In this document: positions 45,186 to 62,789 of the stretch, in pieces
Layout of the letters: each line of letters starts with the position of its first letter
Position numbering within the stretch: position 1 is the first letter of the stretch
From: Candidatus Binatia bacterium
GTDB taxonomy: Bacteria; Desulfobacterota; Binatia; Bin18
DNA length: 64,000 nt
Assembly: GCA_022820725.1 (NCBI GenBank)
Contig: JAJEFA010000001.1
Location: forward strand, 182,749-246,748
Direction: 5' to 3'
The notes under the pieces: generated by a model
Databases searched by the model: none
What the model saw: the letters and a program-made list of their open reading frames with translations, nothing else
Told to the model about the DNA's origin: nothing
Program-made: the position numbers and the translations under genes

Positions 45186-45409
45186 AGAGGTCTTGTCGGG
45201 AGGTTTGGGGAGTAGAGGATATCCCCGTCCGGGTAATACTGGAGCTTCATGTCTACCTCCTGCCCTATTATGGTTTGAAACTCCGATCAAAGAAAGCGTT
45301 GAAGATTGTCTCATTATCGGATGAAATTTCATCCTGGGCGATTCCTCCATCCCGCGGAGAGATTATACATGAGTTTGTCTGGATTCTCAGCGGTTTGGCG
45401 AGCGGCCCC

Positions 45410-46765
45410 TCAGGGCAAAAGACGCCGATAGTGCTGTGCGAGCAGAGCGGCGTCTGCGCTGATTGATCTGACGGCAGGGAATGCGTGTGAGAGTCGATCG
45501 ACCAAATCCGGTTCGGTAAGAAAACGGTTCATCTTTTGACGCAGGTCATCGATATCACGCGGCTGAAACAGGAGGCCGTTCACGCCGTCCCTTACCCATT
45601 CGCGCATGCCGCCAAAGTCGGCCGTAATCACGGGGGTATGGGCCAGAAAGGCCTCCCGAATCACCAGCGGAGCATTTTCATACCAGATCGAGGGCACGAC
45701 GACAACATCCACCTCAGCCAGAATACGACCGAGTTCATGCTGCTCGTAGCGGCCCATGCACCGGATATGGGGTGAGCTGGCCAACTGGGAGCGGAAGCGT
45801 TTCTCGTCCGGATAGGGCGCATAGGCCGCCTCGCCGCCGTAGATATGCAATTCCGCCTGGGGCAGGGTCTGAAAGGCCTCGACCAGCAGATGGACGCCTT
45901 TCACCGGGTCAACAACCCCAATATAGCCAAAGGTGAGGGGCCGCTTGCCCCCGTTTTTCTGAGGAATAAGGGCTTTCTGAGCGGGCTGAATCGTGCCGGT
46001 CTGCAAGCCACACTCGTGAAACAGAATTTTCTCCGGCGGTACGCCAAAAGCCACAAACTGCTCGCGCAGAAAGCGCGACGGCGCCAGAAACAGTGAAACC
46101 GACGCACACAGCGCCCGGATATGGGCCATGCGAGCCTGAATCTGTTGCTGGGCCGCGAGCGAGACGGACTGGGACCCGGCGCGTTGACCGTACCAGCGCC
46201 GGGCCTGCTCTCTGAGCCGGGATTGTCGGCCAAGGAGCGGTTTCAGCCAGCGGTAGAGGACCGACATCTTTGTATCGAGCACATGGTGAAAACACTGGGC
46301 ACAGCCGGTGTCGGTCTGGCCGGGACAGACCGATAGATCGGGTTTCAGAAACCGGCCGCGCTGGCAGATCAGCCAGTAGTCGTGCAGCGTCATGACCACC
46401 GGAATCCGGCGCCGGACCGCTTCACGTACACACGTTGTGGACAGGTATACCAGGTGCTGAAAATGGACGATGTCGGGCTGGAAACGATCCAGCACTGCCC
46501 CAAAACGGGCGGCAATGGCGTCGTTTTGATAACTGTCGGCAAAGCTCGTGCTCTGCCGCAGGGTATTGTTGACTCGCACAATCTCAACATTCTCAACGCT
46601 CGTTGTTTCCACCGCGTACTCAGGCTGCCGGACGTTCTCACGCCGCGCAAAAACCGAGACGGCGTGACCCTGCCGCGCCAGTTCCTGGGCAAGAGCGGCC
46701 GCGTAGGTTTCGGTCCCTCCCAGATATTCCGGCGGTAAGCCGTTGACGACCTGGACAATACGCAT
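45410..46765 (-). CDS. GT4 glycosyltransferase (glycosyl transferase group 1)
   Basis: MRIVQVVNGLPPEYLGGTETYAAALAQELARQGH... N-terminal domain and the C-terminal EX7E-type region ...VVVPSIWYENAPLVIREAFLAHTPVITADFGGMRE.... Confidence 0.8.
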   Translation of the reverse strand: MRIVQVVNGLPPEYLGGTETYAAALAQELARQGHAVSVFARRENVRQPEYAVETTSVENVEIVRVNNTLRQSTSFADSYQNDAIAARFGAVLDRFQPDIVHFQHLVYLSTTCVREAVRRRIPVVMTLHDYWLICQRGRFLKPDLSVCPGQTDTGCAQCFHHVLDTKMSVLYRWLKPLLGRQSRLREQARRWYGQRAGSQSVSLAAQQQIQARMAHIRALCASVSLFLAPSRFLREQFVAFGVPPEKILFHECGLQTGTIQPAQKALIPQKNGGKRPLTFGYIGVVDPVKGVHLLVEAFQTLPQAELHIYGGEAAYAPYPDEKRFRSQLASSPHIRCMGRYEQHELGRILAEVDVVVVPSIWYENAPLVIREAFLAHTPVITADFGGMREWVRDGVNGLLFQPRDIDDLRQKMNRFLTEPDLVDRLSHAFPAVRSISADAALLAQHYRRLLP

Positions 46766-46792
46766 GGGTCTGTCCTGTCTCAACCCAGCCCC

Positions 46793-48511
46793 TTACGGCC
46801 CTAGTGCATAGGCCTCAAGTCGCGAGGGACCATCATCGTGCTTACAGGTCGGTATATACAGAACATTGTCATGAATGAGCGGCAGCAGATTGCGCGACCT
46901 CCAACCGAGCATCTTTTGTCGCGCAATAATATGCCCATCCCGAACACGAACGCCCAGAGCAAAGTTCATGTCACCAACCCAGGCGTATTCCTCGCCGGTC
47001 TCTCCAAATGGTGCAACAACGACCCGGGTGGGATGATAACGAAAACGAACCCGTGACTCCTGGGTTGAAAAATCCGGTGCCTGCCAGAACCGTTCAAAAC
47101 GCGGCTTCCCGTTTGCCAGGGTGATTTTCAATGCCACCAGACCGGCGGAGTGGGTGGAATCGGGCATAAAGGTCGGAATGATAACAACCGGCGTTCCGTC
47201 CACTTCAGTCAGCGTCGGTTTCGTTACGATCATCCCGGCCCAGTCAATCTTACAGGTGTCTTCAGCGGTCCCACACACCTCAACGAGCTGGTGTCGATCA
47301 TACAGCAGCCCCATATGCTCAGCATCAACAAGATAAGCGCTGCCATCCTTGCCGGCTTGTACGTAAACGGTTGGACCATCCGGGACTTCAACTTTGACCG
47401 GTGAGTTTGCTCCGAGGTCATAATCCATCCAGGCAATGCACTCCCAGAACGTTTTGTCGTCACACACGCCAGAAGCGGGCCGGAGAGCGTCGTCACCGGC
47501 TGGTAGCCGGGGAAGAAAGAGATTCTTGCATGACTCAAGACAGGCCAGAGCCGGTTCGCTGGGGTCAAATCCGGCGCATAATTGCACGTCACAGCCAGAT
47601 TCAAACGCGAGTCCGGGGCCAACTCGCATCAGCGTGTTCGCATAATTTTGACGGGGTGGATCAAGCTGACCATTCCCGGTCGGAATAAGTAACTCGAAAC
47701 CGTCCCCTACAGGAAACACCTGCGGTCCTGCAGGAGCCCATACCCCGCCGCCGCAAATCGTATGCCGTGCGCCTGACTTCCCTTCCTGAGGGCATGAGTC
47801 CTCCGGTGTGGTCAACAAGACCCCGGAAATGGCTGCCTGTGCCCCCCTGTCCAGCCAGGCACTCAAGTCAAGCTCGAAGACCCAGCCATGCCAGGGCTGA
47901 ATATCCATATAATTCCCGAACGACACATAGGCATAGCCGAGGTGGTCATCTCCTCCAGGAGCATACACAAGGGCGGAGCGCGAGAGGGCAGTGGCCGGGT
48001 TGAAGCGGACAACTCCCGTCCCATTGCTGCTTGTCTTTTGGGCCTGTAATTCGACTATGGGGAAGGCCGGGTCGAGCCGGCGCTGATCCAGATCAATGAC
48101 CGCCACCCTATGGCTGATGCGCTCATACGAACGAAGTGCACGGACTTGATAGGCGACAACAAGTTTATTTTGGAATTGAACGGGAGTCGCCAACAGCCAG
48201 GGCCGGTAGCCCTCGGGCACCGGAAGACGCAGCTCCCAGACGCGCTGGCCGGTCTTGGGCTGCACCCCGGCAAGCAGTCCGTCGGAGGCGGCGACTAAAA
48301 TAAACGCAGAGTCTTGGGACGCGACGGGTAAAGGAGAGGCCGAAATACAGCCGGCAAACGAGTGTTTTTGATCTGTATCCTCTGGAAATATCCGTGTGAG
48401 TTGCGGAACAGCGGCCGCATCCTGCCTTGTGTCGTCCCCTGAAGCACACGCCACAAATCCGTACAACGTCACGAACAGGAGTATCTTTGGGATGATCTTG
48501 CCGAAGTGCAT
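46793..48511 (-). CDS. Secreted/lipoprotein beta-propeller protein (PQQ/BamB-like repeats), in a lower-GC patch
   Basis: Signal peptide MHFGKIIPKILLFVTLYGFVACASG (start behind AAGAGGA). Repeated DG.L.A...TG...W-type blades, many Cys pairs. Function unknown. Confidence 0.5.
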   Translation of the reverse strand: MHFGKIIPKILLFVTLYGFVACASGDDTRQDAAAVPQLTRIFPEDTDQKHSFAGCISASPLPVASQDSAFILVAASDGLLAGVQPKTGQRVWELRLPVPEGYRPWLLATPVQFQNKLVVAYQVRALRSYERISHRVAVIDLDQRRLDPAFPIVELQAQKTSSNGTGVVRFNPATALSRSALVYAPGGDDHLGYAYVSFGNYMDIQPWHGWVFELDLSAWLDRGAQAAISGVLLTTPEDSCPQEGKSGARHTICGGGVWAPAGPQVFPVGDGFELLIPTGNGQLDPPRQNYANTLMRVGPGLAFESGCDVQLCAGFDPSEPALACLESCKNLFLPRLPAGDDALRPASGVCDDKTFWECIAWMDYDLGANSPVKVEVPDGPTVYVQAGKDGSAYLVDAEHMGLLYDRHQLVEVCGTAEDTCKIDWAGMIVTKPTLTEVDGTPVVIIPTFMPDSTHSAGLVALKITLANGKPRFERFWQAPDFSTQESRVRFRYHPTRVVVAPFGETGEEYAWVGDMNFALGVRVRDGHIIARQKMLGWRSRNLLPLIHDNVLYIPTCKHDDGPSRLEAYALGP

Positions 48512-48711
48512 ACGAGACAATCCTCTTCCAAATTTATACACACGAGGATGACTTGTGTTGTATCTTCTACGCCATTGGAACCAACGTCGAAGAGGTTGAA
48601 GGGTCTGTCTGAACGTTATACCTACGCTAAAGCTGAGGCGGGATACAGGGCCGTCTTATTCCGCTCCCTTTGATCCCGTTGCACCCCCCACTCTGCTGTA
48701 CGCTGACGTTG

Positions 48712-49788
48712 CTATTCATGGTCGCCACCCGCCTCTCCCTTCTCGAGAATGACAACCGTGAAGTCCTCAGTCTGAGCCACAATCTCTCGCAAGAAGAGCC
48801 CTATCCCGTCGGGGATGAGTGGGCGAGGCATGCCCCGTTGTGTCTGGCAGACGAGTTGCTTCTTCTCGTCTACATATAAATCGAATTGATGCAACTGTTC
48901 CCACCCCTGGCGGCTCCCCTCTCTGGTGTGGAAATCGAGTACCAGAATGCCACCGGAGCGCAAACACGCCCCGGCCTGCCCGACAACCGCTATCGGGTCT
49001 TCAACGTGATCAATCGCATTGCGGGTATGAATAATATCGAAGGTCTCTGGAGGGAGCACTGACGTCAACTCTTCAGCATAGATATTCAGTTCGCGATGGC
49101 ACGCCACGGCCGGCAGGCCAGAAAGTCCGTGTCGCTCCAAGATGATCCGATACATATCAAGCAAAGGATCAACGCCGGTGACATGCAACAATCCCTGGAG
49201 AACACCCCAGCGCAATACGGAAATTGGGCCACAGCCGATGTCAAGCGTATCGACCGGCTTCGTAGCCTGTCCTTGGAAACGCCGAATATAGGGGAGAAGA
49301 AATTGAGGAAAGAGTCGCTCACAGTGGGTACGACTGAGATGTTGGAGAATATACTGAGTCCAGCGGGTTGGTTGTCCGTCCCATTCATTGACGCCACCAA
49401 TTTCAAAGTCATGATGAGCCACCTCCTGACACAGCGCGCTTTCCCGGACGGCTGAGGGAGGAGGATAGGCACTATGCGTATAGGCGCATCCGAGCGCTTG
49501 GCACTCGCGTTGTACTGAGGCGGTAAAATCAGCCCGATCCGTTATGACTCCTACGACCCGGCAAGCACCAGACGCTTCCTCCGTAAGGGTCCCCGGTTCC
49601 AGGGGGGCAGAACGGACCAACATCGCATCCACACTCAGCCAGTCCCGCCAGACCAGAAGGAGACGGCGCGCTTCATCAGGAGCAACGCCGGTCTGTTCAT
49701 CAATGACCAGGGTAAGACCACGCCTGCTTCCTCCATTGGTCTCGCGGACCTGACGAAGATTAAACAAAAAACGCATAAGAATATGCAT
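48712..49788 (-). CDS. Class I SAM-dependent methyltransferase with an N-terminal extra domain
   Basis: Motif I LDIGCGPISVL, post-I and motif II/III region ...IIHTRNAIDHVEDP...GGILVLDFH. Confidence 0.6.
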   Translation of the reverse strand: MHILMRFLFNLRQVRETNGGSRRGLTLVIDEQTGVAPDEARRLLLVWRDWLSVDAMLVRSAPLEPGTLTEEASGACRVVGVITDRADFTASVQRECQALGCAYTHSAYPPPSAVRESALCQEVAHHDFEIGGVNEWDGQPTRWTQYILQHLSRTHCERLFPQFLLPYIRRFQGQATKPVDTLDIGCGPISVLRWGVLQGLLHVTGVDPLLDMYRIILERHGLSGLPAVACHRELNIYAEELTSVLPPETFDIIHTRNAIDHVEDPIAVVGQAGACLRSGGILVLDFHTREGSRQGWEQLHQFDLYVDEKKQLVCQTQRGMPRPLIPDGIGLFLREIVAQTEDFTVVILEKGEAGGDHE

Positions 49789-49838: not shown

Positions 49839-50528
49839 CTACGACCGGACGGACAGCCGCAAGGTATGCGCATTGCCGTTCCAGCTCGGCGCTCCGGCCT
49901 CATAGCGGAACCCGGCCACTTCACACATGGCTCTGAGCGCCTCAGCCGTCGGCAGCCACCACCAGGGGCCGAAATCCTCAAAGCGCCACTCCGCCACCTC
50001 CTGCGTGATGCCGAACGCCCCGTCTCCGACAATGGCCTGCCAATACGCCTGGACAATCTCACGCTCGCGGCCCTGGAGAGCCGGAATACACAGCATGGCC
50101 GCGGCGGGCAGCTCAAGCACCCCTTTTGCTCCTTCAATCCGAGTTGCGGTAACGGCCGAGGTCAGAACGAGAGCCTCACGCGTTATCCTGCGTAAGGCGC
50201 GTAAGAACTGCATCGGCTCGGGCATGTGATACAGCACCCCGGAGCAGTGCACGACATCGAACTGCGGGCAGGGGTCCGCCGCGGCCAAGGTCAGGATGTC
50301 GGCGCTCACGCACTCAACGGCCGGCAGCCGGAGCGTGCGCCGCCGCTCGTCAAATAACGCCCACAGCTCGCTGTCTACAGGCGAGACATCAATCATGGCC
50401 AGCGTGCGCGCACCGTGCGCATGGGCAACGGAGACCTTCTCATTGACCGTCCCCCACAGCCCGCCGACATCGGCAAACGATTTTCCGGCCACAACCTGGC
50501 GAATATAGGTATCCCGCACATCCCTCAT
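49839..50528 (-). CDS. Class I SAM-dependent methyltransferase
   Basis: ...FADVGGLWG... motif I-like and ...VVHCSGVLYHMPEPMQFL... region. Confidence 0.6.
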   Translation of the reverse strand: MRDVRDTYIRQVVAGKSFADVGGLWGTVNEKVSVAHAHGARTLAMIDVSPVDSELWALFDERRRTLRLPAVECVSADILTLAAADPCPQFDVVHCSGVLYHMPEPMQFLRALRRITREALVLTSAVTATRIEGAKGVLELPAAAMLCIPALQGREREIVQAYWQAIVGDGAFGITQEVAEWRFEDFGPWWWLPTAEALRAMCEVAGFRYEAGAPSWNGNAHTLRLSVRS

Positions 50529-51028: not shown

Positions 51029-51316
51029 TCACGCCGGGCGAATGACTTCAATCTTTAACCCCGTCGCCCGCACGACCGGAGCTAGCGTCGACCACCGGGG
51101 GTTCCCCTTGGCCGACAGTACGCGGTACAGACTCTCCCGGGGAATCCCCGCCCGTTTGGCGACCACCGCCATGCCTTGTGCTTCAGCGACTTTCCGCAGC
51201 GCTTGCAGGAAGACGGCCGGCTCCTCGTCCTCTGCCGCTGCCGTCAGATATTCGGCGCTAAAACCGGGATCTTTGAGCTGTTCCCGCAGCCACTCGTTAT
51301 GCTTCACCTGTTTCAT
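51029..51316 (-). CDS. HigA-family 'addiction module antidote' protein (COG3636-like HTH); no killer gene upstream
   Basis: ...FSAEYLTAAAEDEEPAVFLQALRKVAEAQGMAVVAKRAGIPRESLYRVLSAKGNPRWSTLAPVVRATGLKIEV matches the antidote family consensus. Start placed at Met35. Confidence 0.6.
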   Translation of the reverse strand: MKQVKHNEWLREQLKDPGFSAEYLTAAAEDEEPAVFLQALRKVAEAQGMAVVAKRAGIPRESLYRVLSAKGNPRWSTLAPVVRATGLKIEVIRPA

Positions 51317-51421
51317 GATCCCCTCGCTTGCGGCTGACCCCGAGTGTGTCACGGTCTTGACCGCCAATTCTTCAACCGCGCCTTCGCTTCGGCAATATAC
51401 CTTGCGGGCCTCATACATTCT

Positions 51422-53746
51422 TCAGAGTGCCCTCTCACGCAGCAAGCGCCGTTTGAGACGATTTTTCAGGGAAAGCAGCCACGGACGGTTGGTCTTGAGC
51501 AGGGCGGTATAGAGCGGCAAGAACATCCGGCGGACCGAAAAATACAGCACCGTCCGCCAGGAGTGGCCGTACGCGGCCACAAGATGGGCCGGAATCAAAC
51601 GCGTTCCTTGCTCTTGCCCGGCGCCCTGCTCCCGTTCCTGCCACAGCCAGTCCGTCACCGTCGTGATCCGCAGATACTCCACCGCCTGCGTTGCACAGGC
51701 GCGTCCGAGACCGAGACCGGGAACCGGCGCGGTGGCCGCTGCCCGCTCCTGCCGTGCGGCTTCACAGGCCGCCAGAACGGTATCGGTCATCTGCTCCAGC
51801 CGGAAGTAATCCTCAATACGCTGGCGCCCCTGTTGGCCCATGCTCTTGCGCTGCTCCGGCTCGTCCAGCAGTCGGGCCAGAACGGTCGAATACTGCCGGG
51901 CTTCGTCTTCTTCCGATCCACGGCCGATCAACACCCCGCATTCAGGCGTGACCAGCTCACGCTGTCCGCCCACGTCAGCCCCCACCACCGGCACTCCGCA
52001 GGCCAGGGCCTCATAGACCGAAAGCGCGATCCCCTCCCACTCCGAGGGCAGAAAGAAAATATCCGCCGCGGCCAACAGGTCCCGAATATCCGTATTGGAC
52101 AACTCCCCGACAAGACGGACCCGCCGTTCCAGCCGGTGCTTGCGGACAAAGGACTTGAGCCAGGCAAAATCCGGCCCGTCGCCGGCAACCACTAACACGA
52201 AATCAGTGTCGCCCCGGGCAAGGCGCAGCGCGGTCTGCGCCAGAACCTTCGGTTGCTTTTGGGCGCACACGCGCCCGACAAACACAATCAGCGGCGTTGA
52301 TTCGGCAATGTCGTAGTGCCGGCGGGCACGGCGGCCCCGCTCGGCGTCGGGCCGCCAGGAGTCGGCGTCGATATTCGTATGACACACCTGGATCGCATCC
52401 GGGTTGGCGCCGCGGGCCGCCATCCAGGCTTTCAGATGCTCCGACGACACCAGGCTGCGGTCAAGCGTTTCCTGATAGGTGACCGACATCTGCGGATAGC
52501 CGCCGTTCTTCCACGCCTCTTCCTCAATATGGCAAAAATCGAGCAGGGGCAGCTTTGGAAAATGCGCCCGCAGATAGGGCAGGAGCTGGTAGCCGAACTC
52601 GCTGTGCGAGACGAGCACCGCGTCCATCTCCCGGCTGTGGATGAGAGAGCGCACAAAGCGCGGATAATCCGCGGGCCGCAGAAAACGGTGCAGGAGAAAA
52701 ATATCGGGGGTCAGGCGGGCAAACTGGGCCAGCCAGGGATGATCGCTACTGAGCGTCGTCGCTATGCTCACCTCCCAGCCGCGCCGGACAAGCTGGCCGA
52801 GCAGATCCAGGTTGAACTTGTCCGACCCGCCCATAGCCAGCCACGGCACGATCAGCAGCAGACGCGGCTTTTCCTTGTGGAGTTTGTTCTCCCACGGGAG
52901 GGTATCGGACACGGTTTCATACGGCGCGAGCGGCGCGGCCTGGGGAGTGGGAAAATCCTCCCAGAGGCGCGGGTAGCGCTGGCGCATTTTTTTCCGAAAG
53001 GCATCCTCGCGCTTCCCGCCATCCCAGTTGTCCCAGCGGTCGCCGTGATTCTCGCGGCGGCGGTACCAGTCGAGATATTCCGGCAGCGTCGTGCCCCAAT
53101 GGCCCTCACTGGCGCAGTGCAGCCAGAAGTCCCAGTCTTCCAGCCCGCCCCGGATCGTTTCGTCATAGCCGCCGACGGCGGTATGCACGCTGCGGCGCAC
53201 CGCGCCGGTGATGTCCACCAGGTTCTGCTCCAGGAAGACCCCCCCGTTGTGGAAGCCCTGCTCCCACAGGTACTCGCTGGCGTCAAAGCCGACCGAGTAG
53301 CCCTTCACAAAGGCGAATTCGGGATAGGACTCCAACAGCCAGACCCATTTTTCTATGGCGGTCGGCTCCAGCAGATTATCCGTATCGAGCTGGACGACGT
53401 ACTCCGCACGCGCGGCCCGGTACGCGGTATTGCGTCCGGCGCTGGGCCCCTGGTTGACCTCGTGGTCAATTACCCGAATCCGGGGGTCCGTGTTGCGGTA
53501 GGAGTCGAGAATAGCCAGGGCCTCCGGGTTGGTCGAGCCGTCGTTGACGATAATCCACTCCCACTGCTGGAAGGACTGCCGCAGGACGGACCGCGCCGTG
53601 TCATGAAAAATCGCGCCGGTGTTGTAATACGGCGTCACGATGGTCACCGCCGGCGGGACGCTCGGGTCAATCGGACGATAAGCATAGACCGGACGCCGGT
53701 CCGAGGCCGGCGTATTCGTATAATCGGGACTGTTGGGATCAATCAT
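51422..53746 (-). CDS. Bifunctional glycosyltransferase, N-terminal GT2 plus C-terminal GT4 domains
   Basis: GT2 domain: VTIVTPYYNTGAIF...IIVNDGSTNPE...VQLDTDN. GT4 domain: ...LIVFVGRVCAQKQPKVL...IFFLPSEWEGIALSVYEALACGVPVVGADVGGQRELV. Confidence 0.8.
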   Translation of the reverse strand: MIDPNSPDYTNTPASDRRPVYAYRPIDPSVPPAVTIVTPYYNTGAIFHDTARSVLRQSFQQWEWIIVNDGSTNPEALAILDSYRNTDPRIRVIDHEVNQGPSAGRNTAYRAARAEYVVQLDTDNLLEPTAIEKWVWLLESYPEFAFVKGYSVGFDASEYLWEQGFHNGGVFLEQNLVDITGAVRRSVHTAVGGYDETIRGGLEDWDFWLHCASEGHWGTTLPEYLDWYRRRENHGDRWDNWDGGKREDAFRKKMRQRYPRLWEDFPTPQAAPLAPYETVSDTLPWENKLHKEKPRLLLIVPWLAMGGSDKFNLDLLGQLVRRGWEVSIATTLSSDHPWLAQFARLTPDIFLLHRFLRPADYPRFVRSLIHSREMDAVLVSHSEFGYQLLPYLRAHFPKLPLLDFCHIEEEAWKNGGYPQMSVTYQETLDRSLVSSEHLKAWMAARGANPDAIQVCHTNIDADSWRPDAERGRRARRHYDIAESTPLIVFVGRVCAQKQPKVLAQTALRLARGDTDFVLVVAGDGPDFAWLKSFVRKHRLERRVRLVGELSNTDIRDLLAAADIFFLPSEWEGIALSVYEALACGVPVVGADVGGQRELVTPECGVLIGRGSEEDEARQYSTVLARLLDEPEQRKSMGQQGRQRIEDYFRLEQMTDTVLAACEAARQERAAATAPVPGLGLGRACATQAVEYLRITTVTDWLWQEREQGAGQEQGTRLIPAHLVAAYGHSWRTVLYFSVRRMFLPLYTALLKTNRPWLLSLKNRLKRRLLRERAL

Positions 53747-56267
53747 TTTTTCTACTCTGGCCGGCTACTTTGGCCGGAAATTCCTGAACCGGCTTGACCA
53801 GTTTCAAGCGGGTGCCCAGGCGGCCCCACCAGCTCTGCTGCCAGTGGCGTGTCTGCGCCTGCCAGTGTTCAGTCTGTTCTTCGTGCTGCCGGGCAATCTT
53901 CTCCCAGTTGTTGCGCTGTTCTTCCATCCACGCCCTGGCTTTCTCCAGCTCGCCGATCCACGCCTGCTGCTCCTGCACCATACGTTCTCGTTCCTCCGCC
54001 TGGGTCTGCCAGTTCGTCCGCTGCGCTTCCAACCACGTTCTGCCTGTTTCGAGCTCCTCTATCCAGCCCTTGAGTTCCCGAATGAAGGTATTCTGGGTCT
54101 CGACCACGTTGCGCCAACTGGCCTGCTGGCCTTCCAGCCAGACTTTCCCGCGCCGGAGTTCCGCGGTCCACTGCCGCAGCCTGACCAGCGCGTCGAACGC
54201 TTCTTCAAGGACCGGGCCGTCGGCGTGCGGTCCCCGCTCCCGGTACAACCGGAGGCCGCGGCGGGCGGCGGTGGTTATTTCCTCCACCCCGCGCTCGAAT
54301 TGGTAGGCGTGCGAGGCATTAGCGCCGTGCCAGCGATAGCGCACCAGGGGACGCGCCAGAAAGCCCACCCGATACCTCAGGCACAGCCGGAGCCACATGG
54401 CATAGTCACAGGCAAAGCCCAGGTCCCGGTCGAACCCGCCCTGTTCGATGAGCGCGCGGCGGCGGGCCAGGACGGTCGGCGCGCACACCCGGTTGCCGTT
54501 GAAGAGCAGGGTCCGAAAATACTCCGGCCCGTCCCAGACCGTGTCGTCGGTCGCGTCCTCAATCCAGTCGGCAAACGCGCTTGGCGCCGACTCCTCGACC
54601 AGCGTTTCCACCCCGGAATGGACGAAACCGACGGTTTCGTCCGCGCTCAACACCTGGACCTTGCACTCCAGATTTTCGGGCAGCATCACATCGTCCTGAT
54701 GAAAGAGACACACAAACGCTCCACCGGCGAGTTCGAGACAGCGGTTCCAATTGGCCGGGATACCCAGCCGCTCCGGGTTGCGGTGCAGCTGTATTCTCGG
54801 GTCGGAAAAGGATTGAACAATATCGAGCGTGGCGTCGGTTGAGCCGTCGTCAACAACCAGGAGTTCAAAATCCTGATAGGTCTGGTGCAGGATGCTGCGC
54901 AGCGCCGCTTCAATATACTTCGCCCCGTTATACGTGGGCAGACAGACGCTCACCGCGCGGGCCGATGTCGGTCGCGGCCTCTCCTCACCCGCCGGGAGAG
55001 TAGGGGCGACCGGCCGGTCGCCCCTACTTGCTTCCGTTGGTCTATCCCGCACGGCCTCATACACGGCCTCCATATCCTGCGCGTACGCCTGCGGGTCTCG
55101 GATGGGTGTCGAGGCTGGCGTGAGCTGTTGACGCAACCGGGTATCGGTCCGCAGCCGCTCCAGGCAGCGCCCCAGGTCGTCGGCGTTCTCGGGTTCAAAC
55201 AGCAGGCCGTTCACCCCGTCCCGAATGACTTCGGGCAGGGCGCCGCGCCGGGCGGCAATGACCGGCAGGCCGGCCTGAAGGGCCTCTCGCGTGACCAGCG
55301 AAAAGGTTTCCTCGCACACGCTGGGCACAACCAGCACGTCGTGCCGGGCCAGAATCGCACTCAATTCGTCGTGGGCATAGGTGCCGCAAAAACGAATGGG
55401 CAGGCCGGCCGCGTCCGCCTCCAGTCGGTCGGCATAGGCGCGCCGGTCCGCGGCCCGCTCACCGTACAGGGAGGCGGCAAAACTGCCGGCCGGCACACCG
55501 TGTACGGCCTGGATCAACAGATGCGGGCCTTTATGCGGCACCAGCGCACCGATATACAACACCCGCATGGGCTGCCGGTCGTCCCGGCGTCCATATGGGA
55601 TAGGCACGACACCGGGGGCCAGGACCTGGAGACGCGGTTCCACAAAAGGAAAAATCTCCTGCATCCTCTCGGCCAGAAATCGGGACGGAACAATGACCCG
55701 CTGTGGCATATGCAGGAGTTGTTCAAAATAGGCAAAGCGCCGGCGGGCCTCCTCCGCAGTCGTCTCCGCCTGGAGGCAGGCAATACAGCGCTCGCCCCGG
55801 TCCGGTCCCGGACACAGCCGGGTGTGGTTGTCTATCAGGTGGATGCGGGCGCAGGCAAAAAAGAAGTCGTGCAGGCTGAGCACGACCGGATAGCCGAGCC
55901 GGGCCGAGGTCCGGAGTACGCTCCCGGACAGATGGATGACGTGCTGAACGTGCACGACATCGGGACGCGAGTCGGTCAGTATCCGGTGGAACGCCTCGTC
56001 GAGAAACGGATGGTCATACTCCAGGCGAAAATGTGAGGCATGGCTGAGAGTGTTGACCACCCGCACGACGCGCACCCCTTTGTGTCCGCTGACAGCCGGC
56101 GCATCCTCCCGCACCGAGCATTCCTCGGCAGCGGGGTCGGTGGTCCGGGCAAAGACCGTCACCGCATGGCCTCTCTGGGCGAGCGCCTGAGCCAGGGTTG
56201 CGGTAACGAGTTCCGCCCCACCCCACTTCTCGGGCGGATAGCCGTGCACGACCTGGAGAATACGCAT
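53739..56267 (-). CDS. Trifunctional-architecture glycosyltransferase: GT4 domain - linker containing a REP palindrome - GT2 domain - C-terminal W-rich coiled-coil repeats
   Basis: GT4 domain: MRILQVVHGYPPEKWGGAEL...CGTYAHDELSAILARHDVLVVPSVCEETFSLVTREALQAGLPVIAARRGALPEV. GT2 domain: VSVCLPTYNGAKYIEAAL...LLVVDDGSTD. C-terminal region: about 35-aa repeats WLEGQQASW...WIEELETGR / WLEAQRTNW...WIGELEKAR / WMEEQRNNW.... 8-nt overlap with the downstream GT2-GT4 gene. Confidence 0.8.
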   Translation of the reverse strand: MRILQVVHGYPPEKWGGAELVTATLAQALAQRGHAVTVFARTTDPAAEECSVREDAPAVSGHKGVRVVRVVNTLSHASHFRLEYDHPFLDEAFHRILTDSRPDVVHVQHVIHLSGSVLRTSARLGYPVVLSLHDFFFACARIHLIDNHTRLCPGPDRGERCIACLQAETTAEEARRRFAYFEQLLHMPQRVIVPSRFLAERMQEIFPFVEPRLQVLAPGVVPIPYGRRDDRQPMRVLYIGALVPHKGPHLLIQAVHGVPAGSFAASLYGERAADRRAYADRLEADAAGLPIRFCGTYAHDELSAILARHDVLVVPSVCEETFSLVTREALQAGLPVIAARRGALPEVIRDGVNGLLFEPENADDLGRCLERLRTDTRLRQQLTPASTPIRDPQAYAQDMEAVYEAVRDRPTEASRGDRPVAPTLPAGEERPRPTSARAVSVCLPTYNGAKYIEAALRSILHQTYQDFELLVVDDGSTDATLDIVQSFSDPRIQLHRNPERLGIPANWNRCLELAGGAFVCLFHQDDVMLPENLECKVQVLSADETVGFVHSGVETLVEESAPSAFADWIEDATDDTVWDGPEYFRTLLFNGNRVCAPTVLARRRALIEQGGFDRDLGFACDYAMWLRLCLRYRVGFLARPLVRYRWHGANASHAYQFERGVEEITTAARRGLRLYRERGPHADGPVLEEAFDALVRLRQWTAELRRGKVWLEGQQASWRNVVETQNTFIRELKGWIEELETGRTWLEAQRTNWQTQAEERERMVQEQQAWIGELEKARAWMEEQRNNWEKIARQHEEQTEHWQAQTRHWQQSWWGRLGTRLKLVKPVQEFPAKVAGQSRKND
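55000..55027. repeat. REP-like 28-bp perfect palindrome GTAGGGGCGACCGGCCGGTCGCCCCTAC located in-frame inside the GT4-GT2 linker (encodes SRGDRPVAPT)
   Basis: Seen directly in the sequence; identical to the copy at 57317-57344 and nearly identical to 1399-1426. Confidence 0.6.
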
Positions 56268-56274: not shown

Positions 56275-57264
56275 TTATTTCTGTTTTATGCTCTCCTGTA
56301 AAGAAATCCGCCGTACCAGGGAGGGCGCCAGGCTCTGCTTGCGTTCGCCGAGCCAGGTGCCCCATAGTGCCGCAAGATGCCAGGCCAGGGCCAGGGCCCC
56401 CCAGCGCAGCCCGACCCGCAGCCGTCCCCGGTGTGTGAGCCAGCGCCAGAACGACAGGTCCCGGCGGGCGGCGCGCCAGGCTGTTGACGGCGTACGGCCC
56501 AGGCACAGACTGGAGGCCGCATCCAGATCGCTCAGCGCGCGGGCATGATCGAAATGCCGCCGGAAATTGGGCCAGGGGCCATACCCGTGGGAATGGTACA
56601 CCAGCGAATCGGCCCGATAGGCGGTCTGATAGCCGGCCTCAAGCACCCGCCTGGCCCACAGCTGGTCCTCGGCGAATTCCACCTCGGGGAAAGGGTGTTG
56701 CTGCCATACGCTGCGGCGCAACACCGAACTGACGTTCGAGAAAAAAGAAAAAGGAGCCGGATTGTCGGCATAATCGGGGGCGGCGCTGCTGTTCAGGCAG
56801 GATTCCGCCCGGCCCGACAGCTCGTCTTCAACAATGCGCCGCCACTCCATGGGGTGACAGTGCGGGCGGGGGAGATGGCGGCTATACGCCCCGGCAATGG
56901 ACGAATCGGCCCGGAGGGGGGCCAGCAGCGCGTCCAGCCAGTCGGCATTGGCGGGAGTCGCGTCCTGGGTCAGAAACACCAGATAGTCGCCCCGCGCGTA
57001 GCTTGCGGCCAGATTGCGGGTTTTGCCGTGGCCGAACTCCTGGGGCGGGATCCGTATGACGCGCACCGTGTGGGCCGCAAGAATGGCCAGGGTGTGATCG
57101 CGCGAACCGGAATCCACGGCAATGATCTCGTCGAGTTGAAAGCGGCCCCGTTGTTGACCGATACGGTCCAGCACTTCGGCCAGATAGCGCGCGCCGTTTT
57201 TTGTGACCAGGAGAACGGATATACTTGGCAGATCGGTCATAGCGTCTGGGTAGGGGCGACGCAT
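56275..57264 (-). CDS. GT2 glycosyltransferase (rhamnosyl/galactosyl-transferase-like)
   Basis: ISVLLVTKNGARYLAEVL...IIAVDSGSRD...VFLTQDA motifs. Track start ATG (57264) is the centre (GCATGC) of a REP palindrome whose left arm (AGGGG) lies at Shine-Dalgarno distance. An alternative start is the MTDLPS Met at 57240. Confidence 0.75.
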   Translation of the reverse strand: MRRPYPDAMTDLPSISVLLVTKNGARYLAEVLDRIGQQRGRFQLDEIIAVDSGSRDHTLAILAAHTVRVIRIPPQEFGHGKTRNLAASYARGDYLVFLTQDATPANADWLDALLAPLRADSSIAGAYSRHLPRPHCHPMEWRRIVEDELSGRAESCLNSSAAPDYADNPAPFSFFSNVSSVLRRSVWQQHPFPEVEFAEDQLWARRVLEAGYQTAYRADSLVYHSHGYGPWPNFRRHFDHARALSDLDAASSLCLGRTPSTAWRAARRDLSFWRWLTHRGRLRVGLRWGALALAWHLAALWGTWLGERKQSLAPSLVRRISLQESIKQK

Positions 57265-58199: not shown

Positions 58200-58982
58200 T
58201 TAGAGATAATCGGCAAAAAATCCCCGGCAGCGTCCAAAGGCATACCGGCCAAACCAGAAGAGCCCGACCGCCCAGCAGACGCTGTACGCCAGCGCGCCGC
58301 CCAGGTTCAGACTGCCCGACAGGATAATCGAGCGATAGCCATCGGTAATCGCCACCATCGGGTTCAGGAGAAACAGCACACCGATGGATTCCGGGATGAG
58401 GCTGGCCGGATACAGAATCGGGGTCAGAAAAAACCACAGCGTAAACCCGGCGGTGGCGAGCTGTTCGACATCCCGAAAGAAGACATTGCCGCAGGCGAGC
58501 AGCATGCCCAGCCCGGTCGCCAGGAGCAGCGCCAGACCCAGGGGCAGGCACAGCAACAGCCCGACCCCGCCGATGAACGTGCCTTTCCACACCATCAGCC
58601 CGAGCAGGAACAGCAGGAACCCGACGCCCTGCACCAGAAAGCTGGCCAGCACCACCGCCACGACCAGCAGTTCCGACGGAAATTGCAGCTTCTTCACCAC
58701 ATTGGCGTTGTTGGTGATGGCCGTCACCGAGCGCAGGCAGGCCTCCTGAAACGCCAGCCACGGCCACAGGCCACAGAACACAAACTCGGCAAAGCCGTGC
58801 CCGCCCTCAATCTCGCCCACCCGGTAAATCGCCGAGAACACCATGGTGTATAGCCCTAACAGGATGGCCGGCTGGATCAAGGACCACAGGCCGCCCAGAC
58901 TCGTACCGGCAAAACGCGCGCCGATCTCACGCCGGACCATGGTCACCAGGAGATAGCGATGGGTCGTCAGGGTGGTAAACAT
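58200..58982 (-). CDS. wzm: ABC-2 type polysaccharide export permease (Wzm/KpsM-like)
   Basis: 260 aa, 6 TM helices, N-terminal ...YLLVTMVRREIGARFAGTSLGGLWSLIQP... typical of ABC-2 permeases. Confidence 0.75.
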   Translation of the reverse strand: MFTTLTTHRYLLVTMVRREIGARFAGTSLGGLWSLIQPAILLGLYTMVFSAIYRVGEIEGGHGFAEFVFCGLWPWLAFQEACLRSVTAITNNANVVKKLQFPSELLVVAVVLASFLVQGVGFLLFLLGLMVWKGTFIGGVGLLLCLPLGLALLLATGLGMLLACGNVFFRDVEQLATAGFTLWFFLTPILYPASLIPESIGVLFLLNPMVAITDGYRSIILSGSLNLGGALAYSVCWAVGLFWFGRYAFGRCRGFFADYL

Positions 58983-59083: not shown

Positions 59084-60763
59084 CTAACGGGACACCAGGA
59101 AATCGCCGATGACGAGATGATCCATGCCCGTCTGCCGGAACATGGCAATGGCGTCATGCGGCGTGTTCACGATCGGGTCCCCCTTCAGATTGAACGACGT
59201 GTTGAGCAGCCCGTGAATCCCCGTCAGTTTGCCGAATTCGGTAATCAGCGCGTGGTAACGCGGGTTGGCCTCGGGGGTCACGACCTGCGCGCGGGCCGTG
59301 GCATCGACGTGCATGGCGGCGCTCAGGTCGCGCCGGCCGGCCGGGGTCGTCGGCAGCGCCATGGTCATATAGGGGGCCGACATGGACGTGGGGAAATAGC
59401 GCCCGCGCTGCTCCACCACCACCGAGGGTCCGAAGGGCCGCCAGTCCTCGCGGTGCTTGACCCGGTTGTTCACCCGATCCTTCATGGCCGTATCAGCGGG
59501 GTTGGCCAGGATGGAGCGGTTCCCCAGGGCGCGCGGTCCCATTTCCATGCGGCCCTGAAACCAGCCCAGGATATTGCCGTCGGCCAAAAGCTCGGCCCCG
59601 CGGGTGGTCACGTCCGAGCAGGCTTCATACGAGACACCCGTCTCCTCAAGGGCGGCTCTGATGTCCTGATTGCGCCATTCCGGGCCAAAATAAGCGTGGG
59701 GCAGGGGGACAGGGCGTTTGCCCGTTTCCCTGGCGTACAGCGCAAATGCCGCGCCGATGGCGCAACCCGGGTCGTTGGCCGCCGGCGGCACATAGAGGCG
59801 CTGCACCGCGGGATGGGCGGCCAGTTCGCCGTTCATCTTGGCGTTCAGGCCCACCCCGCCGGCCAGACAGAAGTCGTGCCAGCCGGTCTGCGCAAAGAGC
59901 AGATCAAACAGATGCGCCCCGATCCGCTCGGTCACCGCCTGGAGCGAGGCCGCAATATGCTCATCCGTGCCGTTGATCGGGTTTCTCCGATACGCCCGCG
60001 GCGGCCCGAAAAAACGACTCAGCCCCACCGGCACCTCGGACAACCAGCTCACGATTGCCTGCGACCAGTAATCGTACGGCCGGGTGACAAACCCCTCCGG
60101 CGTGGGGGTCACGATTTGATCGAACACCTCGGCAAAGCGGTCCTCGCCGTACGAGGCCAGGCCCATGACGCTGCCCTCGCCGTCCAGAAACGTAAACCCG
60201 AGAAAATTGGTCACCGCGGAGTAGAGCATGCCCAACGAGTGCGGCATGGGGATTTCGGCCAGGTGGGTGATCCGCGTGCCCTCGCCCTTTGCCAGTATCG
60301 CCGTGACCGCCTCTCCGCGCGCGTCCAGCGAGAGGATATTGGCTTTTTCAAATGGCGAGCACAGGAAGGCGGTCGCCAGATGGCAGTCGTGGTGGTCGAT
60401 CACTTCGAGCCGGACGCCGACAGTTTCGGCGAAGGTCTCGACATAGCTGCGGATCATTTGCAGGTTTCTGAAATAGCTGAGCAGGTCGTGCGGATGACGC
60501 TGGAAGTGCGAGAAAAACGGCTCGACCTTCCAGTCGTCGCACAGGCTGCGGGCACAGTCGTAATAAAACGCCAGAGCGTCGATGTCACGGAAATCGACCC
60601 CGGCCTTACGCAGGCAGAAGCGGATGGCCTGATGGGGGAATTTGCCGTGGGCGTGTTTTTGCCGGATCAGGCGTTCTTCCTCGGCATAGGCGACCAGCTC
60701 CCCGTCCCGGACCAGGGCCGCGGACGCATCGTGAAACAGCCCGGTCACACCCAGGACGATCAT
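59084..60763 (-). CDS. NodU/CmcH-family carbamoyltransferase
   Basis: MIVLGVTGLFHDASAALVRDGELVAYAEEERLIRQKHAHGKFP... N-terminal domain and the C-terminal YrdC-like half, about 560 aa. Confidence 0.85.
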   Translation of the reverse strand: MIVLGVTGLFHDASAALVRDGELVAYAEEERLIRQKHAHGKFPHQAIRFCLRKAGVDFRDIDALAFYYDCARSLCDDWKVEPFFSHFQRHPHDLLSYFRNLQMIRSYVETFAETVGVRLEVIDHHDCHLATAFLCSPFEKANILSLDARGEAVTAILAKGEGTRITHLAEIPMPHSLGMLYSAVTNFLGFTFLDGEGSVMGLASYGEDRFAEVFDQIVTPTPEGFVTRPYDYWSQAIVSWLSEVPVGLSRFFGPPRAYRRNPINGTDEHIAASLQAVTERIGAHLFDLLFAQTGWHDFCLAGGVGLNAKMNGELAAHPAVQRLYVPPAANDPGCAIGAAFALYARETGKRPVPLPHAYFGPEWRNQDIRAALEETGVSYEACSDVTTRGAELLADGNILGWFQGRMEMGPRALGNRSILANPADTAMKDRVNNRVKHREDWRPFGPSVVVEQRGRYFPTSMSAPYMTMALPTTPAGRRDLSAAMHVDATARAQVVTPEANPRYHALITEFGKLTGIHGLLNTSFNLKGDPIVNTPHDAIAMFRQTGMDHLVIGDFLVSR

Positions 60764-60985: not shown

Positions 60986-61022
60986 CTTTCCCTTCTCCTG
61001 GGAGCGCGGGCATCTTGCCTGC
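60986..61022. repeat. Truncated copy of the three-hairpin/TIR element (…CTCCTGGGAGCGCGGGCATCTTGCCtGC…) between the hicB stop and the small ORF
   Basis: About 30-nt near-identity with the left end of the 61505-61582 copy. Confidence 0.4.
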
Positions 61023-61027
61023 TTCTC

Positions 61028-61273
61028 CTATTGATTCATCACGCCCAGCATCTTATTGGCGTAGTCTTTGCCGCACGTAATGGGAGGTAGCGGTTTGCCG
61101 TCGTTCTTGTACAGGGCAATCGTTTCGTCCACAATTTCGCATAATTCCGCAAAGACTGCTTTTTCGTCTTTCCCGTGACAGCCGCCATAGAACAGTCCCG
61201 GACAGCTCCCAACAAAGCACTGATCTTCGTCGGACCATTCAACAATCTTGACGTACCGGGCGCTCTCTTTCAT
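61028..61273 (-). CDS. hicB: HicB-family type II antitoxin
   Basis: ...YVKIVEWSDEDQCFVGSCPGLFYGGCHGKDEKAVFAELCEIVDETIALY matches the HicB N-domain pattern (Y.V..E...G.Y.A.VPDLPGC..-G-T.EEA..). 4-nt overlap with hicA. Confidence 0.6.
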   Translation of the reverse strand: MKESARYVKIVEWSDEDQCFVGSCPGLFYGGCHGKDEKAVFAELCEIVDETIALYKNDGKPLPPITCGKDYANKMLGVMNQ

Positions 61274-61485
61274 CGCTTGGACTCCTCAATCGCGGCCTTT
61301 ACAGCTTTCTCCTGATAGTGCTTTGCATCTGCCCCAAGTTTACCGGCGATAGTGACGGATTTAGTCACCCTGGGATGCACGAAATTTCTATGACTTCCTT
61401 TTCCGCCCCGATCCACAAACCCTGCTGCTTCGAGGTCTCTGATAAGGGCTCTGATTTTTCGAGGCATCCGTATTATAGCGGACAC
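61270..61485 (-). CDS. hicA: HicA-family type II toxin (mRNA interferase)
   Basis: KIRALIRDLEAAGFVDRGGKGSHRNFVHP... contains the HicA GSH...HP signature; 71 aa. Confidence 0.65.
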   Translation of the reverse strand: MSAIIRMPRKIRALIRDLEAAGFVDRGGKGSHRNFVHPRVTKSVTIAGKLGADAKHYQEKAVKAAIEESKR

Positions 61486-61504: not shown

Positions 61505-61582
61505 TTCCTTCTTCTCTCCTGGGAGCGCGGGCATCTTGCCCGCCTTGCCTTTGCGGGCTGGAAGCCCGCACTCCCAGGGGGG
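61505..61582. repeat. Inverted-orientation copy of the three-hairpin element with terminal inverted repeats CCTGGGAG ... CTCCCAGG (MITE-like), abutting the wzt stop codon
   Basis: CTCCTGGGAG-CGCGGGCATCTTGCCCGC-cttgccttt-GCGGGCTGGAAGCCCGC-aCTCCCAGGGGGG. This is the reverse complement of the hairpin 1 / hairpin 2 core of the copies at 63061 and 63861, with an 8-nt insert between the hairpins. Confidence 0.55.
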
Positions 61583-61583
61583 A

Positions 61584-62789
61584 TCACGTCCAGCGGTGCG
61601 GCAGGCGGCACACGCCCAGCTCGCGGCTCTCGCCCCGCACCGAAAAGTCCTTTTCCACGGTATCAAACATGCGCAGGCCGGACGGGTCAAGAACATGGGT
61701 CCGAAAGGTGTAGTTGCCGGGCAACAGGCTGAGGCTGACCTCATACCCGATCCGAAAGGTGTGCGTGTCCACGCGCTGGGGTTCGACCCGGTCCATGTCG
61801 CTGAAAATACCGTACACGCCGAACTTGTCGTTCCGCCGGACATGGCCGACCGCAAAGACGGGCGGCTGGCCGTCCGGCACCTCGGCGATCATTTCGATCC
61901 GGGCGGTCTCGCCCAGGTCAAACACGTCGGTTTCCCGGTTGTCGGTGTCCAGCAGGCGGACCTGGCGCAATCGGCTGGGCCGGGCCGCATCGGCCACGGG
62001 CTGCGCCTCCGCCTGCTGCTCTTCCCGGGCCTCCAGCTCACGCAGATAGTCCTCAAACGCCAGCGTCACCTCGGCCGCCCCTCCCCAGGCGCGAACCCGG
62101 CCGTGGTCGAGCCACAAGGCTTTCTGGCACAGCTTCTGGACGTGGTACATGCTGTGGGAGCAGAACAGGAGCGTTTTGCCCTCATCCAGAAACGCCTCCA
62201 TGCGGCGGATACACTTCTTCTGAAACGCCTCGTCGCCGACCGACAGGACCTCATCCGTAATCAGGATATCGGGCCGGATGCTGGTGGCCACGGCAAAACC
62301 CAGGCGCATATACATACCCGAGGAATAGGTTTTGACCGGCTGGTCGATAAAGTCGTCCAGTTCGGCAAAGGCGATAATCTCCGGCACCAGGGCCTCGGTT
62401 TCCGCGCCCTCCAGGCCCAGCATGGCCGCGGAAAAATAGATATTCTCCCGCCCGGTATATTCCGGGTGAAAGCCCGTGCCCAGCTCCAGCAGCGCCCCCA
62501 CCCGGCCGGCCACCTCAATCGTGCCGGACGAGGGCCGGGTCACGCCGGAGATGAGCTTGAGCAGGGTGGATTTGCCCGAGCCGTTGCGCCCGATAATGCC
62601 GCACGACTGGCCGGCTTCCAGGTGCAGGTTCACGTCCTGCAGGGCCCAGAAGTCCTGGTGATAGCGGCGGGACGAGACAAACAGTTCCTTGAGCCGGTCG
62701 AACGGCCTGGTGTACAGCTTATAGCATTTGCCCAGATGCTGCGTGCGGACAACCCAGTCGGACGAGGCAGAGCGAGACACAACCGACAT
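61584..62789 (-). CDS. wzt: Polysaccharide-export ABC transporter ATP-binding protein Wzt with C-terminal substrate-binding extension
   Basis: Walker A GIIGRNGSGKSTLLK, signature YSSGMYMRLGFA, Walker B ILITDEVLSVGD, plus an extension of about 150 aa (beta-rich) as in Wzt_C domains that recognise modified O-polysaccharide termini. Confidence 0.8.
   Translation of the reverse strand: MSVVSRSASSDWVVRTQHLGKCYKLYTRPFDRLKELFVSSRRYHQDFWALQDVNLHLEAGQSCGIIGRNGSGKSTLLKLISGVTRPSSGTIEVAGRVGALLELGTGFHPEYTGRENIYFSAAMLGLEGAETEALVPEIIAFAELDDFIDQPVKTYSSGMYMRLGFAVATSIRPDILITDEVLSVGDEAFQKKCIRRMEAFLDEGKTLLFCSHSMYHVQKLCQKALWLDHGRVRAWGGAAEVTLAFEDYLRELEAREEQQAEAQPVADAARPSRLRQVRLLDTDNRETDVFDLGETARIEMIAEVPDGQPPVFAVGHVRRNDKFGVYGIFSDMDRVEPQRVDTHTFRIGYEVSLSLLPGNYTFRTHVLDPSGLRMFDTVEKDFSVRGESRELGVCRLPHRWT

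Follow-up and report, generated by a model that had tools for sequence, protein, structure and literature searches.

A tryptophan-rich stalk of heptad-stepped length on a GT4-GT2 glycosyltransferase: a candidate chain-length ruler in an O-antigen-type locus of Candidatus Binatia

Coiled-coil rulers are an accepted means of chain-length control in O-antigen systems that depend on a transporter of the ATP-binding cassette (ABC) type, and the cases studied belong to a small number of enterobacterial serotypes. An extended coiled coil is regarded as a 'characteristic marker' of the chain-terminating ABC-dependent systems, in which the terminator is held at the distal end (PMC11231755). The terminator WbdD consists of catalytic domains, a coiled coil and, at the C-terminus, a region that binds the membrane and the polymerase (PMC11231755; PMC3482155), and lengthening or shortening its coiled coil raises or lowers the modal chain length (PMC5082667). 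Glycosyltransferases (GTs) carrying a ruler coiled coil have been described as well, namely WbbB of Klebsiella pneumoniae O12, ORF6 of O7 and ORF7 of O4 (PMC11231755), so that neither the ruler concept nor its fusion to a GT is new. Here, we describe an 842-aa protein with a GT4 module, a GT2 module and a C-terminal stalk of tryptophan-rich repeats, encoded in a glycan locus of a 64,000-nucleotide stretch of Candidatus Binatia DNA (GCA_022820725.1, contig JAJEFA010000001.1, positions 182,749 to 246,748), referred to below as the window. The best explanation that we can offer, and one that we regard as about evenly poised between true and false, is a WbdD-like stalk ruler with GT4 and GT2 as capping or distal modules. 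New are the family of W-rich 35-residue repeats and its occurrence, in the manner of a cassette, on numerous capping and transferase enzymes, a natural, heptad-quantised series of 2 to 14 units in syntenic loci of an uncultured phylum, and the apparent placing of two GT modules where a terminator is normally found.

Both catalytic modules are readily recognised. The CAZy GT4 and GT2 signatures lie above the curated Pfam thresholds (PF13439, 77.7 bits; PF00534, 84.2; PF00535, 96.6), with Glyco_transf_4 spanning residues 15-220, Glycos_transf_1 residues 234-384 and the GT2 match residues 440-550 of a module that extends to about residue 675. Foldseek places MshA, sucrose-phosphate synthase and PglA as best matches of the GT4 module, and the top PDB sequence match of the GT2 domain is the GT2 domain of the chondroitin polymerase K4CP (E = 2e-18). 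The whole model retrieved generic GT4 and GT2 enzymes only when compared with the PDB by Foldseek, and no protein of the locus reached an equivalog-level name or cut-off in NCBIfam. The architecture is shared by 436 homologues (E<=1e-20) of 790-1213 aa. The stop codon of the gene overlaps the start of the next one by 8 nt (ATGATTGA).

Behind the GT2 module follow three units of 35 residues (RLRQWTAELRRGKVWLEGQQASWRNVVETQNTFIR, ELKGWIEELETGRTWLEAQRTNWQTQAEERERMVQ and EQQAWIGELEKARAWMEEQRNNWEKIARQHEEQTE, in this order, then HWQAQTRHWQQSWWGRLGTRLKLVKPVQEFPAKVAGQSRKND), each having Trp as its residues 5, 15 and 23; the spacing of 10, 8 and 17 residues occurs three times over. Tryptophan accounts for 10.3% of residues 690-815, against 2.3% of the whole protein. 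Compared with itself at a lag of 35, the tail is identical at 31 of 102 positions, more than in any of 20,000 shuffles of the tail (shuffle maximum 26, taken over lags 5-59), and lags 7 and 14 rank next. An earlier, sequence-only reading of this DNA had proposed a GT4-then-GT2 protein with about 130 aa of W-rich 35-aa repeats; Pfam, Trp spacing and lag-35 identity bear out the architecture, and the length agrees with the 128-residue helix described below, whereas the full units amount to 105 aa. The same reading had pointed to matching repeated blocks in the DNA. The quoted motifs are present (cgtggttggaa, cgtggatggaa and ctggctggaa on the coding strand), but the three units are only 47-58% identical in nucleotide sequence, and because they have diverged this far Tandem Repeats Finder, run on the window, called no DNA-level repeat in the stalk. 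In the window the repeat is therefore visible at the protein level only, and one protein alone carries it. In Pfam the stalk gives nothing but a sub-threshold coiled-coil hit, and when the tail alone was searched against PDB sequences no match emerged (best E = 0.3, to kinesin and myosin coiled coils). Homology of the stalk to those of WbdD or WbbB was considered and rejected on this empty search, in which WbdD constructs were included; the full protein likewise gave no WbdD hit in the PDB, so that it does not belong to the WbdD family by homology.

The AlphaFold2 model, run as a monomer with an alignment of 81 sequences, shows one unbroken helix of 128 residues with a predicted local distance difference test score (pLDDT) of 67-87 over residues 681-790 and 53-56 over 791-820; its length of about 190 Å is computed at 1.5 Å per residue. 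A heptad profile was built from 271 distinct units of 115 homologues. Large hydrophobic residues occupy the a and d positions (L2, W5, L9, L16, W23, V/I26 and L33), Gly12 (83%) and Gln19 (97%) are found at core positions as well, prolines are absent from all units and the Fourier spectrum has a single peak at 3.5 residues. The 100% conservation of Trp in this profile is circular, as the units were picked by Trp spacing; in the independent alignment of 81 orthologues, W710, W718, W735, W745 and W814 are invariant. E8 at position g (89%) and K/R13 at position e (90%) form a conserved i to i+5 pair, and g-e pairing of this kind is typical of parallel coiled coils. We thus hold with high confidence that the C-terminal region is a genuine heptad coiled-coil stalk, neither disordered nor folded back, in agreement with the sequence-only reading. 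The last ~160 residues are probably a parallel alpha-helical coiled coil together with its short tail.

The stalk is closed by a short conserved motif of basic and aromatic character, in which W814 and L821 are invariant and W809, R816, G818, V824 and P826 reach at least 90% across the 81 sequences. The model has a short helix at residues 813-820 and then a disordered end, including about 16 poorly conserved residues behind the motif (to 53742). An identical type of tail closes the stalked homologues of MT358, a methyltransferase encoded further along the locus.

Length differences among the 436 homologues are accounted for by the tail after the RYRWH motif, which measures 97-555 residues with 8-44 Trp. 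Long alleles are runs of the 35-aa unit with occasional units of 21 aa (three heptads), and one homologue (P0084) contains eleven identical copies of the 35-aa unit. Among 68 orthologues the first stalk Trp and the tail Trp lie 69 to 478 residues apart, with 23 distinct spacings; modulo 7, this distance is congruent to 2 in 61 orthologues and to 6 in the other seven, and the same heptad rule holds for the MT358-stalk proteins. The nearest homologue, 95% identical to the window protein, differs from it by two separate and exact deletions of seven residues in the stalk. This quantisation of length argues for a continuous heptad structure that evolves in heptad steps and keeps its phase to the tail. 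In one long allele (L015) DNA repeats of 105, 210, 273 and 483 bp are 97-99% identical, which indicates recent unequal recombination. In near-identical loci, nature thus provides an allelic series from about 100 to about 700 Å in exact heptad steps, a parallel to the hand-made WbdD experiment. Cyanobacterial matches of the genome scan (e.g., L020) have the GT2 domain in common and not the W-repeat, and a protein of 1550 aa with 22 stretches (P0137) is a low-complexity false positive; both were set aside.

The stalk is not confined to this GT fusion. An exhaustive search with the 157-residue tail as query (E<=1e-3) yielded 275 protein clusters, in which the match lies nearly always at the C-terminal end. 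Of the 76 clusters scanned for domains, 22 have a GT2 domain N-terminal to the stalk, 17 a methyltransferase, ten a GT4, eight a sulfotransferase, three a pyruvyl transferase, and one each a carbamoyltransferase and a TylF O-methyltransferase. Most of these proteins end in a short basic or aromatic tail (WGRLGxRLKLV, WIRIGKRFRF, LYRLLVRLRLLP or WIPQPLKK). Homologues of MT358, of the GT2-GT4 protein encoded next to the stalked gene and of the carbamoyltransferase of the locus occur both with and without stalk: the stalked MT358 homologues (73-78% identity) have 477-569 aa with a W-rich stalk and a WGRLG tail, the stalked GT2-GT4 homologue P0141 is 57-58% identical over 708-733 aa, and P0163 and P0260 are stalked carbamoyltransferase homologues. 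Stalk and tail form a portable cassette at the C-terminus of varied enzymes of ABC-transporter-dependent glycan loci. The family is easily recognised by its 35-residue W-rich units and short basic tail, in at least 275 protein clusters.

Three environmental loci (L052, L053 and L054) have a stalked methyltransferase or sulfotransferase gene directly after wzm and a wzt with Wzt_C domain. In the first, the gene after that of the stalked methyltransferase encodes a GT2-GT4 protein sharing 49% identity over 750 aa with the one in the window, which is the order wzm-wzt-wbdD-wbdA of E. coli O8/O9a. The stalked proteins of these loci (P0155, P0142 and P0165, respectively) belong to the same W-rich repeat family, with 34-40% identity to the window stalk and a short basic tail; they are uncharacterised environmental proteins and differ from the window protein in that their catalytic domains are classic capping enzymes. 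Since the stalk is here found on capping-type enzymes in the position of wbdD, it would belong functionally with the molecular rulers of the WbdD type.

Compared with WbdD of E. coli O9a/O8 and K. pneumoniae O3/O5, the window protein has the same layout of N-terminal catalytic domains, coiled coil and C-terminal tail, a stalk of similar length (about 190 Å as compared with about 200 Å; PMC5082667; PMC3482155; PMC11231755), and neighbouring genes for Wzm, for a Wzt with carbohydrate-binding domain and for a separate dual-GT protein. It differs in that its catalytic part is GT4 plus GT2 instead of a methyltransferase or methyltransferase-kinase, and in that its stalk is built of strict 35-aa W-rich repeats of variable copy number, trimer and membrane anchor being putative. 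WbbB of K. pneumoniae O12 and Raoultella terrigena resembles it in that a single polypeptide of an ABC-transporter-dependent O-antigen system carries GT modules together with a ruler-type coiled coil (PMC11231755), but there the coiled coil parts an N-terminal terminating beta-Kdo transferase from two C-terminal polymerising GTs, whereas both GT modules of the window protein are N-terminal and only 30-31 residues, none of them catalytic, follow the stalk. The window polypeptide alone therefore cannot span both ends of a ruler, and the 'single-polypeptide solution' to length control put forward in the sequence-only reading falls away, no terminator domain being present. The nearest precedent is ORF7 of K. 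pneumoniae O4, a GT137 Kdo transferase in which a terminating GT precedes a C-terminal coiled coil, though it has a single GT of another fold and a TPR-like bundle in addition; ORF6 of O7 (methyltransferase-kinase, coiled coil, GT2-GT2) likewise has GT2 modules on a coiled-coil protein, but C-terminal to the coiled coil. For neither of the two is a W-rich 35-aa repeat reported in PMC11231755.

In the window protein GT4 and GT2 occupy the N-terminal end of the stalk, distal in WbdD, so the order of catalytic domains, stalk and anchor puts them in the position of a terminator and not, as the sequence-only reading had it, of a polymerase. In the proposed mechanism the tail would anchor the protein to the cytoplasmic membrane or to the polymerase complex, and the stalk would hold the GT4 and GT2 modules some 170-190 Å away, where undecaprenyl-linked chains would become their substrates only on reaching stalk length. 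These chains would most likely be made by the neighbouring GT2-GT4 protein, which has the tail without the stalk; GT4-GT2 would supply a cap that ends the chain, or a distal domain, and this addition would be completed by methyltransferases and/or the carbamoyltransferase and recognised for export by the carbohydrate-binding domain of Wzt. The length of the stalk, varied in heptad steps, would then set the minimum chain length. Our confidence is moderate for the stalk as a measure of chain length, which we infer by analogy with WbdD, and lower for GT4-GT2 as a cap-forming rather than polymerising pair; membrane binding by the tail is weakly suggested. If the ruler role is true, the repeat could be used to spot, by sequence, glycans of regulated chain length in metagenomes, and could provide a ready toolkit for the engineering of polysaccharide length.

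Several observations weigh against this mechanism. To our knowledge, a dual-GT terminator is without precedent. The amphipathicity of the tail is suggestive only and depends on the segment chosen, since an 11-mer has a hydrophobic moment of 0.55 and a net positive charge, whereas that of a 17-mer (0.17) is not above shuffles. Some copy numbers come from long-read metagenome-assembled genomes (MAGs), in which repeat counts can be wrong. In a more distant relative (L055; GCA_016197285.1, JACPWD010000004.1, 7423..15120) the GT4-GT2 fusion is split into a GT4 of 495 aa with a non-W coiled coil of its own and a basic tail, and a GT2 of 365 aa with W-units and without tail, while a full W-stalk with tail is found on one of two polymerase-like GT2-GT4 paralogues. 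Terminators are therefore not the only proteins with a stalk, which may also have a part in assembly; the arrangement suggests that stalks in this locus may pair between subunits. Finally, in a small sample of seven loci that have a stalked MT358 as well as a stalked GT, the stalk lengths (GT/MT358: 79/86-111, 142/142, 205/142, 219/142, 212/128, 273/128 and 198, 107/94) show no constant offset.

That the lengths of co-resident stalks are not simply matched would be expected if the stalk were an oligomerisation or assembly scaffold that joins copies of one enzyme, or several different stalked enzymes, to each other, measuring no length and drifting neutrally in copy number. The repeat is, moreover, unusually conserved between unrelated enzymes (35-60% identity), as expected of stalks that pair, and several genomes have two to four proteins with coiled-coil segments per locus, one of them without tail. 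Against this stand a stalk of 100-480 residues, a length not required for oligomerisation, the heptad phase to the tail that is preserved across a seven-fold range of lengths, the occurrence of the module on capping-type enzymes next to transporters with a Wzt carbohydrate-binding domain, the experimental finding that coiled-coil length sets chain length in a WbdD-type setting (PMC5082667), and the single repeat-carrying protein in the window. A pure scaffold thus seems to us quite unlikely. Measuring and assembly could also be combined, the stalk acting as a length-gated switch and assembly rail: GT4-GT2, as a second polymerase or capping machine, would start a chemically different distal block only when the GT2-GT4 block has reached the height of the stalk, the highly conserved W-rich units would allow stalked GTs, methyltransferase and carbamoyltransferase to join, at defined heights, in hetero-oligomeric coiled coils, and the conserved tryptophans might contact the nascent glycan. 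We consider this improbable; if it were true, the architecture of surface glycans would be quickly adjustable in evolution through gain and loss of repeats in heptad steps.

The capping mechanism also depends on the orientation of the stalk, which the sequence-only reading had the other way round: a GT4-GT2 polymerase at the membrane would send its stalk into the cytoplasm, where the distal tail recruits, or in some homologues is fused to, a terminating methyltransferase, so that the polymerase carries its own ruler. One protein, P0100, fits this orientation and counts against ours, as its methyltransferase, weakly similar to MT358 (27% over 125 aa, E = 1e-5), comes after GT4, GT2 and stalk. 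However, P0100 is known from a single short-read contig, and its stalk ends in the tail 'WIPQPLK' that terminates other proteins (P0139 and P0152), which suggests a secondary gene fusion. A polymerase is also the top PDB sequence match of the GT2 domain, the methyltransferase adjoining wzm has a tail-like motif, and the way in which the stop codon overlaps the start of the next GT gene hints at a stoichiometric complex. On the other hand, every other stalked enzyme found has its catalytic part at the N-terminus and the short basic tail last, the tail end lies at the membrane in the WbdD layout (PMC11231755; PMC5082667), and in the GT2-GT4 neighbour, which lacks the stalk, a homologous tail comes right behind the catalytic domains. 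A self-ruling polymerase is therefore, in our view, unlikely, though it retains some force.

The GT2-GT4 neighbour, whose 49%-identical homologue in L052 holds the wbdA position, is the better candidate for the polymerase, in a WbdA-like and membrane-proximal position. In another protein (P0219), a tail homologous to that of GT2-GT4 comes after a W-stalk, which means that the same putative anchor exists with and without spacer. The methyltransferase adjoining wzm contains YFRLLRRLRLVP, similar to the tail motif of the stalk protein, and the C-termini of the single-module GT2 and of GT2-GT4 have segments rich in Arg, Leu and aromatic residues that resemble its WGRLGTRLKLVKP tail; several enzymes of the locus may therefore share one anchoring or docking motif.

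The locus (Table 1) is, on its gene content, best described as an ABC-transporter-dependent, cap-recognising system of the O-antigen type, with cap binding by Wzt predicted. The sequence-only reading had named this setting, several S-adenosylmethionine (SAM) methyltransferases and a Wzt with a C-terminal extension, and all three are found: Wzm and Wzt are accompanied by three methyltransferases and a carbamoyltransferase as candidate capping enzymes, and Wzt aligns over residues 16-398 of its 401 with residues 5-388 of Wzt from Aquifex aeolicus (7k2t/8dku; E = 9e-73), including the carbohydrate-binding domain, for which the Wzt_C match (residues 274-394, 29.1 bits) is just below the cut-off of 30.4. 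The capping-type enzymes are separate proteins here and stalked in other genomes. Long-read MAGs make up the best 18 genome matches; they bear the label Candidatus Binatia (Thermodesulfobacteriota in one case), and the gene order wzt, (carbamoyltransferase), wzm, methyltransferase, GT2, GT4-GT2-stalk, GT2-GT4, methyltransferase is conserved across the 18 Binatia loci, the carbamoyltransferase being missing from about seven. The listed open reading frame (ORF) of the wzm-adjacent methyltransferase runs further upstream into wzm, and its L055 orthologue aligns from residue 7.

The product need not be lipopolysaccharide (LPS), for the stalk might act in the manner proposed above on a capsule-like, S-layer-linked or exopolysaccharide polymer. 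The WbaP-type initiating phosphoglycosyl transferase and the eight GT modules of the cluster would suit such a glycan, and chain-terminating ABC systems are known to make other glycans too (PMC11231755). We nevertheless think it very unlikely, as the same string of genes encodes a WaaL-like ligase and the machinery of an outer membrane is encoded as well: TamB, an Omp85-family protein and an OprB porin, whose genes lie upstream, mark the organism as diderm.

Table 1. Positions in the window of the stalk protein, its parts and the surrounding features.
Feature	Position	Strand	Evidence or occurrence
GT4-GT2-coiled-coil gene, 842 aa	53739..56267	minus	ORF list, sequence, Pfam
GT4 (GT-B fold) module, residues 15-385	55113..56225	minus	Pfam PF13439, PF00534, PF13692
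GT2 (GT-A fold) module, residues 438-675	54243..54956	minus	Pfam PF00535, E = 2e-27
Single continuous alpha-helix, coiled-coil stalk, residues 684-811, ~190 Å	53835..54218	minus	AlphaFold2, heptad profile
Three 35-aa (five-heptad) W-rich units, residues 696-800	53868..54182	minus	Trp spacing, lag-35 identity
Individual units	54078..54182, 53973..54077, 53868..53972	minus	
Conserved tail motif W813-P826 (WWGRLGTRLKLVKP), putative anchor/docking motif	53790..53831	minus	81-sequence alignment
GT2-GT4 dual glycosyltransferase, 774 aa, basic C-terminal tail, without stalk	51422..53746	minus	Pfam
GT2 single-module glycosyltransferase, 329 aa, hydrophobic/basic C-terminus	56275..57264	minus	Pfam; syntenic in 18/18 Binatia loci
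SAM methyltransferase adjoining wzm, ~281 aa	57355..~58200	minus	Pfam PF13489; in 16/18 syntenic loci
Wzm, ABC-2 permease	58200..58982	minus	Pfam PF01061, E = 1e-15
NodU/CmcH-type carbamoyltransferase, candidate glycan-capping enzyme	59084..60763	minus	Pfam PF02543, PF16861
Wzt, ABC ATPase with C-terminal carbohydrate-binding domain	61584..62789	minus	Pfam ABC_tran, Wzt_C
SAM methyltransferase MT229, 229 aa, conserved in synteny	49839..50528	minus	Pfam
SAM methyltransferase MT358, without stalk or tail	48712..49788	minus	Homologue comparison
Region downstream of the MT358 stop	48541..48712		
582-aa protein, lipoprotein-like N-terminus (…FVACASG…)	46793..48541	minus	
Remaining glycan cluster	40561..46783	minus	Pfam
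GT4	45410..46783	minus	Pfam
Two GT2	44163..45350, 43321..44139	minus	Pfam
WbaP-type initiating phosphoglycosyl transferase	41846..43540	minus	Pfam
WaaL-like O-antigen ligase	40561..41856	minus	Pfam Wzy_C, E = 1e-23
Two tandem MsbA-like ABC exporters (TM + ATPase half-transporters), 605 and 595 aa	36950..40551	minus	
Toxin-antitoxin genes	61028..61485, 63208..63810, 51029..51418		
Two HicA toxins	61270..61485, 63208..63441		Pfam PF07927
HigA-type antidote protein	51029..51418		PF21716, TIGR02684
GC-rich short repeat element, at least 4 copies	60994..61029, 61505..61583, 63055..63200, 63855..64000	both orientations	

MT358 itself looks truncated in the window. Downstream of its stop codon lie QRQRTAEWGVQRDQRERNKTALYPASALA in frame and FRQTLQPLRRWFQ in another frame, which match the C-terminal helix and basic tail of a 92%-identical homologue of 405 aa (P0281), and a 98%-identical homologue of 358 aa (P0280) has the stop in common; a nonsense mutation together with a frameshift may have removed the anchor tail, or assembly errors may be responsible. 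The lipoprotein-like protein encoded next to it matched nothing in Pfam or NCBIfam, and has homologues in three of the 18 syntenic Binatia loci (L002, L008 and L015), with ORFs of similar size after MT358 in L047-L050. The two MsbA-like exporters follow directly on the WaaL-like ligase.

Toxin-antitoxin genes are scattered within the glycan cluster. Each of the two HicA toxins has a small adjoining partner ORF without significant Pfam hit, and the HigA-type antidote protein, encoded between the GT2-GT4 gene and MT229, has a match in L018 only among related loci. A short GC-rich repeat element with the core GCGGGCAAGATGCCCGCGCTCCCAGG flanks wzt and the HicA modules; two copies of 146 nt are 97% identical, the final copy reaches the end of the window, and the element resembles repetitive extragenic palindromic (REP) sequences or miniature inverted-repeat transposable elements (MITEs).

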